Assembly: GCA_035478995.1 (NCBI GenBank)
Contig: DATIJE010000004.1
Span: 6,218-70,217 of the forward strand
Length of the DNA stretch: 64,000 bases
Direction: 5' to 3'
Source of the DNA: Rhabdochlamydiaceae bacterium
GTDB lineage: Bacteria; Chlamydiota; Chlamydiia; Chlamydiales; Rhabdochlamydiaceae
Shown here: positions 58,837 to 64,000 of the stretch, piece by piece
Layout: every line of letters starts with the position of its first letter
Numbering within the stretch: position 1 is the stretch's first letter
The notes under the pieces: generated by a model
Seen by the model: only the letters and a program-made list of their open reading frames with translations
Databases searched by the model: none
Told to the model about the DNA's origin: nothing
Position numbers and translations under genes: made by a program

Positions 58837-61800
58837 ATGACCAATACGCTGAACGACGCTCAAAAAAAGAACCCTGCTATGACAGATACCAATTTTACTG
58901 TAGTCAAGCGAGATGGATCCTTTGTTCCTTTCAGGAAAGAAAGGATTTACCGTGCCATAGAGGCGGCGTTCCGAGATACAAAGAAAGTTTTAAAAATCGA
59001 ACCTTTGCCTGAAGATCTTGCTGAAATCGTATTAGAAGTGACCGATCTTGTCGCTGCCCAGCTTATGATCCCGGCCTCAAAAGGGGCAAGCCTGACCGTG
59101 GAAGGGATACAGGACATGGTCGAAGTGACCTTGATGACACAAGGGCATCACGACGTCGCAAGAGATTACATCATTTATCGCGACCAGCACAAGGCCCTGC
59201 GCGAAGACTCTCCCCAAAGCCTTAGAATTATCCGTAAAGATGGGAACAGGGTACGCTTCAATCCTATGAAGATCGCCTCATCCATCGAAGGCGCGTTCCG
59301 TAGAACCCGACGCATTGAAGGGCCTTCTACTCAAGCAATCATCGAGGCCGTCAATCTTTTGACGCAGAACATTGTTGCCCGAGCAGTTGCTTTGTCCAAA
59401 GCGGGCCAATCGCTCCATGTTTCCCTGATCCAGGACGAGATCGAATGCCATCTCATGAGACAGGGTTTCTTCGATATCGCCAAGGATTTCATTCTCTATC
59501 GAGCCTCTCTTGGAGAACAGACTCTTTCGGAACAGGAAGAAAAAGCCCTCGCAGAAGAAAGGGCCCAAAGACAGTTCACCGTCGCGCTTGAAGATCAGAC
59601 GACACGGATCATTACGGAATCGCAGCTCCGCAGCAAACTTGCTTTCGCATGCAGAGGTTTGGAAGAGCTTGTCTCTGTCGAAGAGCTTTTAGAAAGCGCA
59701 ATTGCCAATTTTTATGAAGGAATGAAAGAAAGCGAAGTAGACCTTGCCAATCAATTCTCGTCCCGAGCGAAAATTGAAATTGAACCGGCTTACTCGAAAG
59801 TGGCATCCCGTCTTCTTTTAGACGTCATTTATCGAGAGACCATGCAAGTCAGTTCCTCAGATCCGACGCTTGAAGCGACCCATCACAAGTATTTCAAAAA
59901 TTACATGAAACAAGCCGTCGAGCTTCAGCGCGTGCATCCTTCTTTACTGGAATATGATCTGGATAAACTCGCCATGGCCATGGACCTGCAGCGGGACGAT
60001 CAATTTTCTTATCTGGGATTGCAGACTCTCTACGACCGTTATTTCATCCATGATCAGCAAAGACGTCTTGAAACCCCTCAGATTTTTTGGATGCGCGTCG
60101 CGATGGGCGTAGCTCTATGCGAAAAAGATCAAAAGAACGAACGAGCCATCGAATTTTATAACGTGCTGTCGAAATTTCTGTTTATCTCCGGGACTCCGAC
60201 CTTGTTCAATTCAGGGACCATGACCTCTCAACTCAGCTCATGCTATCTCTCCACGGTGATGGACGATCTGTCCAACATTTTTAAAGTCGTCTCTGACGAT
60301 GCCCAGCTCTCCAAATGGGCGGGAGGAATTGGAAATGATTGGACGAATGTGCGCGCTACGGGAGCCATGATCAAAGGCACCAATGGCAAAAGCCAAGGAG
60401 TCATTCCGTTCTTGAAAGTGGCAAACGACACTGCTGTAGCAGTCAATCAGTGTTTTGCGCCTGAAACCATGATCTATACAGCCGATGGAATCAAACCTAT
60501 TGCCGAGATCAACATAGGAGAGCTTGTTCTTGGAATCAAAGGAACATATCGCGAGGTCACGGACAAGTTTACATATAATCAACATGGTCCTATGGTCTCC
60601 CTGAAAGTCAAACATTCTATTTCTTCCATAGATGTAACGGCTGGCCACCCTTTTTATGCAATTTGCAGCGTGCCAATGGAACAATCGATAGATCGTACCC
60701 TGTCCTGGTTAAAGAAAGGAAAGATCAAGTGTGAATGGGTAGAAGCAGGTCAACTGAAACGAGGTGATTATATCGCCCAAGTGATTCCTAAAGAAGTCGT
60801 ACGAGTCGAGGATTTCGAGGAAGAGGATGCACGCCTTTACGGCATTCTTTTAGGCGATGGCCATCTTTCTAAAAATGCTTCTCAATGGGGAGTTTCAGGG
60901 AATCCGGAGTCTGACGAACATTTAGAATTCGTCCGCAGTTATTTAATAAAAAGAGGCATCCATTTTTGGGAAACTGGTCGAGGAGATCATTATGTGCAAA
61001 TCCACTGGGCTGCAGGAAAGGGTGCTGTACGCGATGCCACAACAGGACGGATTGTAGGAAGCGGAGAAAATACGCTGCCGTTTGAGCATGAAGATCTCTA
61101 TGATCAACAAGCCAGAAAGCATATTGCCCCCCGTTTCTCTCATTTACCACGTTCGCAGACATTGGCTTTGATACAAGGGCTTTTAGAAACGGATGGCAAT
61201 GTTTCCAGAAATAAAGAAATTTCATTCACGAATACCTCTCAATCTCTGATCGAAGGCCTTCGTTATCAACTGTTGCGCTTAGGCGTTCCGACAGCTGGTG
61301 CTTATCGGGTGCGCAAAAATGACCATGTAGGACACCGTTCCGATGGATCTTTTGCTTACTTCAATGGAGAAACATGTTGCTACGACCTGCGCATTCCTGC
61401 GGTTCCCGAACTCGCCGAACGGATTCAATGCAAACCTCTTACAAAATTCAATTGGCTCACTTTTAATGATCATCTCTTCACACGAGTCAAAAAAACGCAA
61501 TCTATCGATGCAACACCTCTTGTTTGCGATCTTCAAGTGGAAGGTGCTGAATCTTACATGACAACTGCTGGCCTTGCCCATAATGGTGGAAAACGGAAGG
61601 GAGCGATGTGCGCGTATTTGGAGACATGGCATCTCGATATCGAAGACTTCTTGGACCTGCGCAAGAACACAGGCGATGATAGACGGCGTACGCACGATAT
61701 GAATACGGCCAACTGGATCCCCGATTTGTTCATGAAACGGGTGCAGGCCAATGGAATGTGGACCTTGTTCAGTCCAAGCGATGTGCCTGACCTGCACGAT

Positions 61801-63180
61801 CTTTATGGCGCAGCCTTTGAAAAACGGTATCTCGAATACGAAAGAATGGTCGAGGAAGGGAAAATCAAACTTTTCAAAAAGATCGAGGCGGTCCAGCTCT
61901 GGCGCAAAATGCTCAGCATGCTCTTTGAGACAGGCCATCCATGGATCACTTTCAAAGATCCTTCCAATATACGCTCTCCTCAAGACCATGCCGGCGTGGT
62001 GCACAGCTCTAACCTATGCACCGAGATCTTGCTTAATACATCAATAGATGAAACGGCTGTATGCAACCTCGGTTCGATCAATCTTCCAGAGCATATGACA
62101 GAAAAAGGGATCGACGAGAAGAAACTCGCAGAGACGATCCGCACTGCAGTCCGCATGCTCGACAACGTGATCGATATCAACTTCTATCCCACACCCGAAG
62201 CTGAGCGCGCCAACTTGCGCCATCGGGCGATCGGTCTGGGACTCATGGGATTCCAAGACGCTCTTTACATTCAAAATATCAGCTACGCCAGCCATGAAGC
62301 GGTCAAATTCGCAGACAACAGTATGGAGCTCATCTCTTACTATGCGATTCTGTCCTCTAGCGAATTGGCAAAAGAAAGAGGCGCTTATTCTTCGTTTAAA
62401 GGCTCAAAGTGGGACCGGGGATTTTTGCCGATCGATACGCTCGATCTCCTCGAAGAAGAAAGAGGCGGGTATGTGGATGTCGATCGGAGCTCTATTCTCG
62501 ATTGGACTCTTGTTCGGGAATCGATCAAGAAATATGGGATGCGCAATTGCAACACCATGGCGATCGCGCCAACGGCCACAATTTCGAATATCACAGGAAT
62601 CACGCAATCGATCGAACCGATGTACAAACATCTGTTCGTAAAGTCGAATCTGTCCGGCGAGTTCACCATCACGAATACGTATCTGGTCGATCGTCTCAAA
62701 AAACTTGGACTATGGGATGCTGTCATGCTCGACGACCTGAAATACTTCGATGGTTCGATCTCGGAAATAGACCGGATTCCTCAAGAGCTCAAGCATTTGT
62801 TCCTGACCGCTTTTGAAATCGATCCCGAATGGATCATCGAATGCGCGAGCCGCAGACAAAAATGGATCGATATGGGGCAATCGCTCAATCTTTATCTCGC
62901 TGAACCAAGCGGTAAAAAATTGAATCAAATGTACTTCTTATCTTGGACCAAGGGGTTAAAGACCAACTATTACCTCCGTACTTTGGCTGCGACCCAAATT
63001 GAAAAATCGACCACAGATATCAATGCACGCGGACTGCAGCCTCGTTGGATGAAGCACAAATCCGCATCCAGCAACATCCTCATAGAAAGAGATGAAGAAC
63101 AGAAAGATGAAAAAGAAGACCGCCCCAAAAAAAATCCGATGAGCTGCTCTCTCGGAGAAGAATGTGAAAGCTGCCAATAA
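58837..63180 (+). CDS. nrdA: Ribonucleoside-diphosphate reductase alpha subunit with three N-terminal ATP-cones and one intein
   Basis: ATP-cones: [48 protein letters not shown], and a third degenerate one. Catalytic blocks: [20 protein letters not shown][intein][36 protein letters not shown] and the C-terminal CxxC tail ([11 protein letters not shown]). Confidence 0.95.
60451..61584 (+). mobile_element. Intein (378 aa) with a LAGLIDADG homing-endonuclease domain, inserted in nrdA
   Basis: Block A is [13 protein letters not shown] (Cys1) and block B is VTAGHPFYA (TxxH). The LAGLIDADG motifs are [11 protein letters not shown] and [12 protein letters not shown]. Blocks F/G are [21 protein letters not shown] (terminal His-Asn). 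The flanks rejoin to the conserved AVNQ|GGKRKGA. Confidence 0.85.
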
Positions 63181-63204: not shown

Positions 63205-64000
63205 ATGATTAGATTTGAAGAACAAGAAATCGAAGAGGCCTCTGCCGAAGAAAAAAATGAAAGAGGACCCGATACGAGCAAACGCGTCAATGTCGATGAA
63301 AAACGTTTGATCAATTGCAATGCAGTCGACGTGAACCAGCTCATGCCCCTAAAATACAAATGGGCTTGGGAACATTATCTCAATGGGTGCTCCAACCATT
63401 GGATGCCGACCGAAGTCCCGATGGGCAAAGATATCGAGCTCTGGAAGTCAGATGCGTTCAGCATAGATGAAAAAAGAGTGATCATGCGCAATCTTGGTTT
63501 TTTCAGCACTGCGGAAAGCCTGGTGGGCAACAATATCGTGCTCGCTATTTTCAAACACGTCACAAATCCTGAGGTGCGGCAATACCTTTTGCGCCAGGCT
63601 TTTGAAGAAGCGATCCACACCCATGCGTTTCTTTACATAGTGGAATCCCTTTCCCTCGATCAGGGCGAAGTCTTCAATATGTACAACGAGATCAACACGA
63701 TCAACACTAAAGATATGTTTGAAATGAAGCTCACAGAGGACATCCTGCGCCCCGGCTTCAATACTTCCACTCCACAAGGCGCGCAAAAATTTTTGGAAAA
63801 TCTGATCGGATTTTACATCATCATGGAAGGGATCTTCTTCTATAGCGGATTCGTCATGATCCTCTCCTTCCACCGTCAAAATAAAATGACGGGCATAGGC
63901 GAGCAGTTCCAATATATCCTTCGGGATGAGACCATCCATCTTAATTTCGGCATCGATCTCATCAATGGCATTAAAGAAGAAAACCCCCATCTATGGACGC
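63205..64000 (+). CDS. nrdB: Ribonucleoside-diphosphate reductase beta subunit, class Ic-like (partial; 3' end beyond the window)
   Basis: This ORF is not in the ORF track because there is no stop in the window. The ATG is at 63205. It reads [10 protein letters not shown]...[12 protein letters not shown]...[19 protein letters not shown]...[11 protein letters not shown]...[10 protein letters not shown]. Phe aligns with E. coli Tyr122 and Glu with Asp84, as in Chlamydia trachomatis R2. Confidence 0.9.

Follow-up and report, generated by a model that had tools for sequence, protein, structure and literature searches.

A glycine-flanked LAGLIDADG intein in specificity loop 2 of a chlamydial NrdA belongs to a conserved family that may splice without a +1 nucleophile

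Canonical class 1 inteins such as PI-SceI, TliVMA, PI-PfuI and PI-TkoII are inserted in frame at conserved sites, carry an endonuclease nested among the splicing blocks A, B, F and G, and are removed exactly from the host protein. Their splicing passes through a branched intermediate that depends on Cys, Ser or Thr as the first residue of the C-extein (+1), and mutation of this residue generally leaves cleavage as the only reaction. According to reviews, inteins occur solely in front of Cys, Ser or Thr, and a Hint domain without such a residue mostly cleaves. The type A bacterial intein-like (BIL) domains, such as that of Clostridium thermocellum (PDB 2lwy; Amitai, 2003; Dassa, 2004; Aranko, 2013), possess Cys1 and a terminal His-Asn without any +1 nucleophile, and can splice by a proposed attack of the freed amine on the N-terminal thioester, the products being mostly cleaved, with less spliced protein (PMC4031507, citing Dassa, 2004 and Aranko, 2013). 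BILs measure some 130-150 aa and lack an endonuclease; their hosts are hypervariable proteins, whose variable regions they occupy, and homing is not known for them (PMC4031507; PMC2814812); conserved sites are not preferred by them (PMC2814812). A non-nucleophilic +1 residue, in this case Tyr, is likewise found in an intein-like element of Magnetospirillum magnetotacticum (Southworth, 2004). Within ribonucleotide reductase (RNR), nrdA of Aeromonas phage Aeh1 is split by a homing endonuclease gene (nrdA-a/mobE/nrdA-b), and the enzyme consists of two polypeptides (PMC3045599). The closest described relatives of the element treated here are the NrdA inteins of Azotobacter chroococcum (Achr_15980, aa 442-800) and A. 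vinelandii (Avin_33290), annotated in a report that is silent on the Gly at +1 (PMC4465626).

The window analyzed here, a stretch of 64,000 nucleotides from a Rhabdochlamydiaceae bacterium, carries nrdA as a single open frame followed by nrdB (Table 1). An initial annotation had described a full-length LAGLIDADG intein within nrdA, and its fold and motifs bear this out to the nucleotide. The element begins CFAPETM and ends AGLAHN; block B reads VTAGHP, and the two LAGLIDADG motifs read YGILLGDGH (D136) and QGLLETDGN (D248). It thus has the Hint fold with blocks A, B, F and G, the Cys1 and the His-Asn of a class 1 intein, but in place of the +1 Cys, Ser or Thr there is Gly. [quoted passage not shown]

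Table 1. Features of the nrdA region, in window coordinates.
Feature	Position	Strand	Evidence
nrdA precursor ORF (1447 aa): N-extein 538 aa, intein 378 aa, C-extein 531 aa	58837..63180	+	ORF list
nrdA precursor Pfam domains: ATP-cone, Ribonuc_red_lgN, Ribonuc_red_lgC barrel (interrupted, two parts)	58837..63180	+	Pfam
N-extein, C-terminal end NDTAVAVNQ; -1 Gln (CAG) = yeast R1 Q288, specificity loop 2	58837..60450	+	alignment to 5im3, 1zyz, 3tb9 (Q288A mutant)
Intein (378 aa), LAGLIDADG endonuclease domain nested in Hint splicing domain	60451..61584	+	Pfam, model, Foldseek
Cys1 codon TGT, N-terminal nucleophile	60451..60453	+	81/81 family members, 62/62 superfamily members
Block B TxxH (T63-A-G-H66)	60637..60648	+	T63, H66 in 81/81
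LAGLIDADG motif 1, catalytic D136	60835..60864	+	D136 in 80/81; helix in model
LAGLIDADG motif 2, catalytic D248	61168..61200	+	within Pfam LAGLIDADG_3, E 2.5e-11; D248 in 80/81
Block F Asp D360	61528..61530	+	81/81
Block G His377-Asn378 (CAT AAT), Asn cyclisation site	61579..61584	+	81/81; every superfamily member examined
C-extein +1 GGT (Gly) = first Gly of loop 2 GGKRKGA	61585..61587	+	homologues: GGC, GGT, GGA, GGG
C-extein (531 aa) + stop; SSNLCTE active-site motif, C-terminal CxxC tail	61585..63180	+	ORF list, Pfam, alignment
nrdB 5' part, class Ic type, continues beyond window end	63205..64000	+	translation

Pfam PT-HINT (24.5 bits), Pfam Intein_splicing (24.4 bits) and TIGR01445 all scored below their cut-offs on the intein; a single-sequence search of the PDB gave no match, and a profile search of the PDB gave marginal matches only, the best being the BIL 2lwy, confined to the first 70 residues (E 8.8e-4). 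The AlphaFold2 model (pLDDT 88.3, pTM 0.86) matched the solved endonuclease-bearing inteins TliVMA, PI-SceI and PI-PfuI in Foldseek with E values of 1e-18 to 1e-13 (to 1e-11 when PI-TkoII is included; TM 0.52-0.65), and I-DmoI and I-SceI were also among its fold matches. The adjoining nrdB, which the initial annotation had called class Ic, is confirmed as such by its match to the R2 protein of C. trachomatis (1syy, 4d8f; E 3.5e-131). A Phe of its product aligns with the Phe of that enzyme's EEAIHTHAF motif, the position that other class I R2 proteins use for the radical Tyr.

The insertion site, and with it the identity of the +1 residue, can be fixed exactly. Deletion of the intein restores a contiguous AVAVNQGGKRKGA, as in the intein-free NrdA of Pseudomonas aeruginosa, and the resulting protein of 1069 aa aligns without gaps across the junction to that NrdA (5im3) and to yeast R1 (1zyz). 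The intein therefore lies in specificity loop 2, between the equivalents of yeast Q288 and G289 (NQ/GGKRKGA), in agreement with the conserved loop and the Gly +1 recognized at first annotation. Two doubts raised at that time can be laid to rest. Shifted junctions that would place Cys, Ser or Thr at +1 are rejected, as the intein-free 5im3 fixes the spliced NQGGKRKGA and offers no such residue within reach. A sequencing error at the Gly codon is rejected as well: two independent Logan assemblies (SRR9179560 and SRR9179562) show 0 mismatches to the window in alignments of 3345 and 2886 nt, GGT included, and the homologues differ synonymously at this codon.

Nor is the element peculiar to one genome, the Azotobacter allele having already been annotated as an intein (PMC4465626). 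Matches were obtained in 354 species genomes, from which 80 loci were fetched, giving 81 alleles together with that of the window. The arrangement NQ/C...HN/GG is found in every one of them, and the use of all four Gly codons (GGC, GGT, GGA and GGG) at +1 indicates that selection acts on the amino acid. Chlamydiae MAGs account for roughly 19 of the 80, so that in public data an intein of this kind is not new to the Chlamydiae, where the initial annotation was aware of none. Cultured hosts with an intact reading frame include Azotobacter vinelandii, Azorhizophilus paspali, Halomonas spp., Thiothrix eikelboomii, Thiolinea disciformis, Thiofilum flexile and Fulvimonas soli, and Chlamydiales OY969554.1 is one of the complete genomes that carry the intein. 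Intein length is exactly 378 aa in 74 of the 81 alleles, none has an internal stop, and at a mean identity of 65% C1, T63, H66, D360, H377 and N378 never vary and D136 and D248 are kept in 80 alleles each; apart from Cys1 no Cys is conserved in the intein of the 81 members, block F included. Truncated database homologues were considered as possible pseudogenes and rejected, since they apparently owe their shortness to contig ends and to frameshifts lying outside the intein; L002 and L031, the affected loci noted, both come from 'MFD' MAG assemblies.

Selection on the element was estimated from the 25 closest pairs, in which both alleles carry the intein. Intein dN/dS was about 0.04-0.13 in 21 of these pairs, with a full range of 0.03-0.46 whose upper end is due to pairs of very low dS; for the exteins dN/dS was mostly 0.01-0.11, with a maximum of 0.19. 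Pairs from Halomonas show a dS of 0.03-0.07 in the intein vs. 0.28-0.38 in the extein, which suggests recent transfer of the intein. Likewise, the similarity ranking of the inteins disagrees with that of the exteins, and the distribution across phyla is patchy; judged from these sequences, the family is apparently still mobile. We consider it almost certain that the Gly+1 intein allele in the nrdA of the window is genuine and maintained by selection, and on sequence comparison this represents a conserved, little-studied intein type common to hundreds of bacterial species.

Since the Azotobacter allele had been annotated before, the kind is known and the window intein is a further member of it. 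The A. vinelandii copy (locus L041) is a 378-aa intein with 65% identity to that of the window, alike in its junctions and LAGLIDADG type. Its host differs in being a gammaproteobacterium that has a class II RNR too, and as some hosts thus possess a second reductase, NrdA need not be essential everywhere. The A. vinelandii intein is presumably the entry 'Avin RIR1 BIL' of the InBase registry; neither this term nor 'Mca RIR1' returned anything in a literature full-text search. Full-text searches yielded no paper on Gly+1 RNR inteins apart from the Azotobacter annotation, and the searchable literature gave no biochemical work on any member of the nrdA family.

A natural comparison is offered by inteins that occupy the same site in other RNR lineages, where the +1 residue is either Ser or Gly. 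Profile hits numbered roughly 6,500 in all, and the nearest full-length relatives of the window intein are RNR inteins, some of them Ser+1. The Ser+1 loop 2 inteins (P0105, P0107, P0113 and P0123; INQ/CF..DT...GLVHN/SGKRNGS) are homologous to it (profile E 1e-51 to 1e-59), measure some 353-359 aa, and share its insertion point and motif layout. They differ in that they can splice ordinarily via Ser, where the window intein has Gly, and in having a His in block F (NHNY) vs. ESY. By composition and sequence, their hosts seem to be R1 proteins of eukaryotic or viral type that contain several inteins, and intein-free relatives of these hosts read GG, SG or AG at the site. On a rough tree the +1 state has changed more than once. 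No intein position separated the Gly+1 from the Ser+1 members at an 80%/80% criterion; weak trends at P67 and A376 were either present in canonical outgroups or non-exclusive, and the comparison found no compensating substitution specific to the Gly+1 inteins. The +1 residue thus appears to track the host sequence, with no intein position tracking the +1 state.

The window intein shares with canonical class 1 inteins the fold, the four blocks, the nested endonuclease, the in-frame insertion at a conserved site and the exact restoration of the host sequence on its removal, but their branched intermediate is impossible for it. It has the residues by which type A BILs are defined (PMC4031507), and is unlike BILs in its 378 aa, its conserved endonuclease and its location in the near-invariant loop 2 of NrdA. 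The M. magnetotacticum element is apparently an isolated decayed case, whereas Gly+1 is kept under selection in hundreds of species. The initial annotation had asserted that every known splicing mechanism needs Cys, Ser or Thr at +1; this goes too far, as type A BILs can splice without one (PMC4031507).

How, then, might such a precursor be processed? Because Gly has no side chain, the canonical transesterification step is impossible. Because Cys1, the TxxH motif, the block F Asp and the His-Asn are all kept, and intein and host enzyme alike are under purifying selection, the precursor must yield active enzyme. The element is best explained as a functional allele within a widespread family of mobile inteins, which targets the DNA encoding loop 2 of class I RNR large subunits. 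As to its chemistry and the ligation of NrdA, we infer, at what we judge to be even chances, that the intein splices by direct aminolysis, in which the freed amine of Gly+1 attacks the Cys1 thioester. An N-S acyl shift at the Gln-Cys1 bond would generate the thioester, and cyclisation of Asn378 would free the alpha-amino group of Gly+1. This unhindered amine would then attack the thioester directly and restore a Gln-Gly peptide bond, the two ends being kept together by the alpha/beta barrel into which both NrdA halves have by then folded. The 43-kDa intein so released would act as a putative homing endonuclease on intein-free nrdA alleles. A broader proposition, to which we give slightly less than even chances, is that the Gly+1 loop 2 RNR inteins are efficient homing inteins that constitute a fourth natural class of protein splicing, in which aminolysis by the Gly amine is templated by the host barrel.

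Of the three explanations put forward at first annotation, unusual splicing and cleavage alone are both still live, and a non-functional nrdA is very unlikely given Gly at +1 in 81/81 alleles and purifying selection. Cleavage into a two-piece enzyme is the main rival to aminolysis, and no sequence feature tells ligation from double cleavage. Hydrolysis of the Cys1 thioester together with cyclisation of Asn378 would leave halves of 538 and 531 aa that form a non-covalent two-piece large subunit with a nick in loop 2. Such an outcome would account for the kept Cys1, TxxH and His-Asn just as well as splicing would, and elements without a +1 nucleophile yield chiefly cleavage products. Phage Aeh1 provides a precedent, its split NrdA (NrdA-a/NrdA-b) being fully active; however, that split lies elsewhere, after the NLCxE motif, it arose with a free-standing HNH endonuclease gene and no Hint domain, and assembly of the Aeh1 enzyme needs special acquired tail peptides, of which there are none here (PMC3045599). 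The 2010 Aeh1 paper reports no split gene among some 1200 surveyed nrdA genes (PMC3045599). A break at the window site would moreover fall between the loop 2 Gln and the Arg that read substrate and effector (yeast Q288 and R293 mutants, 3tb9 and 3s8a), and would leave charged termini there. Finally, the same-site Ser+1 relatives presumably splice normally, which suggests that a continuous loop is needed at this position. On balance we regard cleavage alone as unlikely, though it deserves serious weight.

Ligation might also come about by chemistry other than aminolysis by Gly+1, be it a relay nucleophile, a small-molecule thiol, or a superfamily-wide mechanism for which the +1 side chain is irrelevant, that of the Ser+1 members included. 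The occurrence of Gly or Ser at +1 in close relatives with no matching change in the intein speaks for such chemistry, and a Cys at +9 (GGKRKGAxC), common among hosts, might be thought to serve as a relay. A relay Cys is nonetheless rejected: within the intein only Cys1 is conserved, and the +9 Cys is a host-family feature, present also in the intein-free P. aeruginosa NrdA and missing from some intein-bearing alleles (GAVFGYL in L018, GAFAAYL in P0074 and P0077). We find non-canonical chemistry of this sort doubtful, a degree more so than cleavage.

Much less probable than either is an unprocessed precursor, in which NrdA would be active with a 43-kDa domain in loop 2 or would be held in an inactive regulatory state. 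The adjacent N and C termini of a Hint domain would make it sterically comparable to a loop insertion in the model, but loop 2 lies between the specificity and catalytic sites, at the dimer interface, and autoprocessing residues that are invariant in 81 alleles at 65% identity would then be needless. A dead gene, an artefact at the Gly codon or a mis-assigned junction has nothing but the missing nucleophile to recommend it, and can be dismissed as exceedingly improbable in view of the intact frame of 1447 aa, the two identical independent assemblies, Gly+1 in all 81 alleles with synonymously varying codons, the gap-free alignment of the spliced sequence to 5im3, and the purifying selection on intein and exteins (extein dN/dS 0.01-0.19), which makes a dead gene very unlikely.

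The Gly+1 inteins form a large group that selection maintains and that is apparently still mobile; they bear an endonuclease and interrupt a core enzyme in the synthesis of DNA precursors. If they splice, nucleophile-free ligation would be a normal, efficient reaction rather than the side activity seen in BILs, and inteins that leave behind Gly, or perhaps any residue, would lend themselves to traceless protein ligation. If they constitute a fourth class, the rule that inteins are inserted only before Cys, Ser or Thr would fall, and the class would extend over hundreds of bacterial species and apparently also to hosts resembling virus- or eukaryote-type R1. If they only cleave, many bacteria would live with a two-piece RNR nicked in its specificity loop, which would surprise RNR specialists. 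In Chlamydiae, for which a lone class Ic RNR is the usual arrangement, the processing step could control the supply of dNTPs.

The window's nrdA, the gene for the class I ribonucleotide reductase (RNR) large subunit, holds an insert with TxxH (VTAGHP), two LAGLIDADG motifs, a block F Asp and a terminal His-Asn. The codons bear out the initial annotation in placing Gly directly after the terminal Asn, where canonical inteins have Cys, Ser or Thr. Removal of residues 539-916 leaves a protein of 1069 aa. Its alignment with the intein-free NrdA of P. aeruginosa (5im3) shows no gap at the junction, and the same is true for yeast and human R1; on these alignments the junctions are exact and the insertion site is specificity loop 2. 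Shifted boundaries were also considered, and in the alignment to intein-free NrdA no shift gives Cys, Ser or Thr at +1. Because the residues altered in the yeast loop 2 mutants Q288A (3tb9) and R293A (3s8a) correspond in the alignment to the Gln at -1 and the GGKRKG Arg, the intein lies between the two substrate-/effector-reading residues. A sequencing error at the Gly codon, raised earlier as a possibility, is excluded by independent Logan assemblies of two different runs: stretches of 3345 and 2886 nt, GGT included, are identical to nrdA of the window. From the genes around nrdA, the host is a Rhabdochlamydiaceae MAG.

Coordinates of nrdA, its intein junctions and neighbouring features in the window
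Feature	Position	Strand	Remark
nrdA	58837..63180	+	single open frame, 1447 aa
NrdA N-terminus	58837-59600	+	more than one ATP-cone before the all-alpha domain (Pfam, two stretches, E 2e-31)
-1 Gln codon CAG	60448-60450	+	directly before Cys1
Cys1 codon TGT	60451-60453	+	first intein residue
Terminal His-Asn, CAT AAT	61579-61584	+	intein end
+1 Gly codon GGT	61585-61587	+	first C-extein codon
nrdB, 5' part	63205-64000	+	extends beyond the window
Antisense ORFs, several	60238-62004	-	65-241 aa; overlap intein and exteins
Antisense ORF, example	61279..62004	-	241 aa

Chlamydial NrdA N-termini are multi-cone. In its metal-site helices the adjoining nrdB is near-identical to the class Ic R2 of Chlamydia trachomatis (1syy/4d8f, E about 1e-131). 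When EEAIHTHAF of the window is aligned with EEAVHTHTF of that protein, Phe pairs with Phe, and STAESLV is identical in both. In other class I R2 proteins, the radical Tyr and the first metal ligand occupy these positions. The antisense ORFs, located inside a strongly conserved sense frame, are most likely spurious.

Pfam recognised LAGLIDADG_3 in the insert (E 2.5e-11); Hint and intein models stayed below threshold in both Pfam and NCBIfam, and the fold was therefore modelled. The AlphaFold2 model, run on the intein with flanks of 10 aa, reached pLDDT 88.3 and pTM 0.86, and its best Foldseek matches in the PDB were the endonuclease-bearing inteins TliVMA (7qsu/7qss), PI-SceI, PI-PfuI and PI-TkoII (E 1e-18 to 1e-11), with free LAGLIDADG enzymes ranking next.

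The Gly+1 intein is a real, well-conserved feature, and its supposed uniqueness did not survive database searching. A protein search with the intein returned 70 homologues (38-71% identity), with HN/GGKRKG in every one that extends to the C-junction, and when one genome per species was scanned, 354 genomes proved to encode a relative. Loci were fetched from the best 80 of the 354, among which about 19 are Chlamydiae MAGs and the remainder include Verrucomicrobiota, Acidobacteria, one actinomycete and many Gamma- and Betaproteobacteria. Cultured hosts among these best 80 include Azotobacter vinelandii, Azorhizophilus paspali, Thiothrix eikelboomii, Halomonas cerina, H. ventosae, Halomonas sp. 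25-S5, Thiolinea disciformis, Thiofilum flexile and Fulvimonas soli. NQ/C...HN/GG is present in all 80 fetched loci, the +1 codon being GGC, GGT, GGA or GGG, and the frame runs unbroken from N-extein to C-extein in most. In 'MFD' MAG assemblies, 400-600-aa 'proteins' on very long contigs (database protein P0001, loci L002 and L031) represent nrdA frameshifted just outside the intein (P0001 reads ...AHNGGKTKRGDVRL); as the intein itself remains in frame, they have the look of faulty assemblies and not of pseudogenes.

Some hosts carry a second intein. Four loci of Usitatibacter/Betaproteobacteria MAGs (L033, L071, L073, L075) have one of about 365 aa in the C-extein at the active-site motif (HSSNLC/CIAADQ...VTKN/TEITLNT), with a canonical Thr+1 and a penultimate Lys instead of His; these precursors must have one canonical and one Gly+1 intein removed. 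Cultured Thiofilum flexile DSM 14609 (L059) has, beside its Gly+1 loop 2 intein, a canonical C-extein intein with Cys+1 (EIAV/CFPAGTQIL...ANGLVVHN/CNLGSVNL), convenient for comparing both chemistries within one protein.

When 1.84 billion representative proteins were searched with a profile, 6465 matched (128 with E <1e-30). Nearly every full-length match is an RNR large subunit whose intein shares the [ND]Q/ insertion site and is followed by Gly (GGKRKG, GGGKRKG, GGNKRPG) or Ser (SGKRNGS). The Ser+1 hosts look, from composition, like virus- or eukaryote-type R1 proteins; their intein-free relatives have GG (110), SG (4) or AG (2) at this position, and the +1 residue therefore simply follows host lineage. 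In a neighbour-joining tree, rough and without support values, the Gly+1 inteins are spread over two or more clades and the Ser+1 inteins over two, with canonical multi-intein proteins outside, so the +1 state switched more than once. A position-by-position comparison gave no site in the intein that tells Gly+1 members from Ser+1 members. Three Ser+1 RNR large subunits (P0105, P0123, P0093), whose composition resembles that of R1 proteins of giant-virus or eukaryote type, contain additional inteins, and that of P0105 after SSNL has an apparent Gly-Gln end before Cys+1 (...IITGQ/CNEI), a C-terminal Gln appearing to replace Asn.

Across the 81 alleles (80 loci plus the window), mean pairwise intein identity is 65%, length is exactly 378 aa in 74, none has a stop, C1, T63, H66, D360, H377 and N378 are invariant, and each of the two endonuclease Asp residues is conserved in 80. 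Of the 25 closest pairs, 21 had an intein dN/dS of about 0.04-0.13 (full range 0.03-0.46, the highest from pairs of very low dS). Flanking exteins, in pairs with the intein in both alleles, gave mostly 0.01-0.11 (maximum 0.19), which indicates that the host NrdA is in use. Among Halomonas loci L064, L068 and L043, dS in the intein (0.03-0.09) lies four- to tenfold below that of 300 flanking extein codons (0.28-0.40), which suggests recent transfer between species. The window intein is nearest to a Verrucomicrobiota allele (74%), whereas its exteins are nearest to those of other Chlamydiae (91%), in which intein identity is only 65-69%. Both patterns are consistent with horizontal transfer via homing; the element seems mobile.

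The premise that no known splicing mechanism can do without Cys, Ser or Thr at +1 does not hold, since type A bacterial intein-like domains, with His-Asn and no +1 nucleophile, can splice: a thioester forms, Asn cyclises and the amino group thereby released attacks; cleavage products predominate, and a Magnetospirillum element needed a Tyr+1 to Cys change (review by Mills, Johnson and Perler, PMC4031507). On bacterial intein-like domains Iwai's group concurs (PMC7664689). The Hint active site here is of class 1 type and complete apart from the +1 nucleophile, selection acts on it and on the host enzyme, and we infer that autoprocessing cuts the precursor at its two junctions. A type A-like aminolysis route, to which we give about an even chance, would be the most economical restoration of an intact loop 2: an N-S acyl shift at Gln-Cys1 would be followed by cyclisation of Asn378, and the Gly+1 alpha-amine would then perform aminolysis of the thioester. 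Gly offers the least hindered amine, and the NrdA halves, in one alpha/beta barrel, should keep the ends together after C-cleavage; both features could raise efficiency above that in bacterial intein-like domains. The main rival, double cleavage leaving NrdA in two pieces, is rather unlikely. Split NrdA can function in phage Aeh1, but that protein is split at a different place and depends on tail peptides (PMC3045599). Ligation through other chemistry is slightly less probable still, and a precursor left unprocessed is improbable. An artefact or the non-functional copy once proposed is scarcely credible, the extein dN/dS arguing strongly against a dead gene.

The window element is an intein by descent and lifestyle, given its Hint and LAGLIDADG fold, conserved core-enzyme site, homing-type distribution and nearest relatives among Ser+1 inteins, yet of the features that define canonical inteins it lacks one, the +1 nucleophile. 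Its junction chemistry agrees with the definition of type A bacterial intein-like domains, but those are small, without endonuclease and at variable host sites, and it differs in all three. The best PDB sequence-profile match, to the bacterial intein-like domain 2lwy, is weak (E 8.8e-4, 70 residues). InBase reportedly listed the Azotobacter element as 'Avin RIR1 BIL'. The Azotobacter genome paper annotates the same insertion as a LAGLIDADG intein (Achr_15980 aa 442-800, conserved in Avin_33290) with no remark on the +1 residue (PMC4465626), a full-text literature search found no paper describing or testing Gly+1 RNR inteins, and Chlamydiae are absent from the phyla listed with RNR inteins in a 2015 survey of bacterial inteins. 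The window element is a new member of a family that public databases already contain and that the literature records for Azotobacter; its defining oddity, a Gly+1 residue after a mobile intein in a core enzyme, is accessible to direct testing in cultured hosts.
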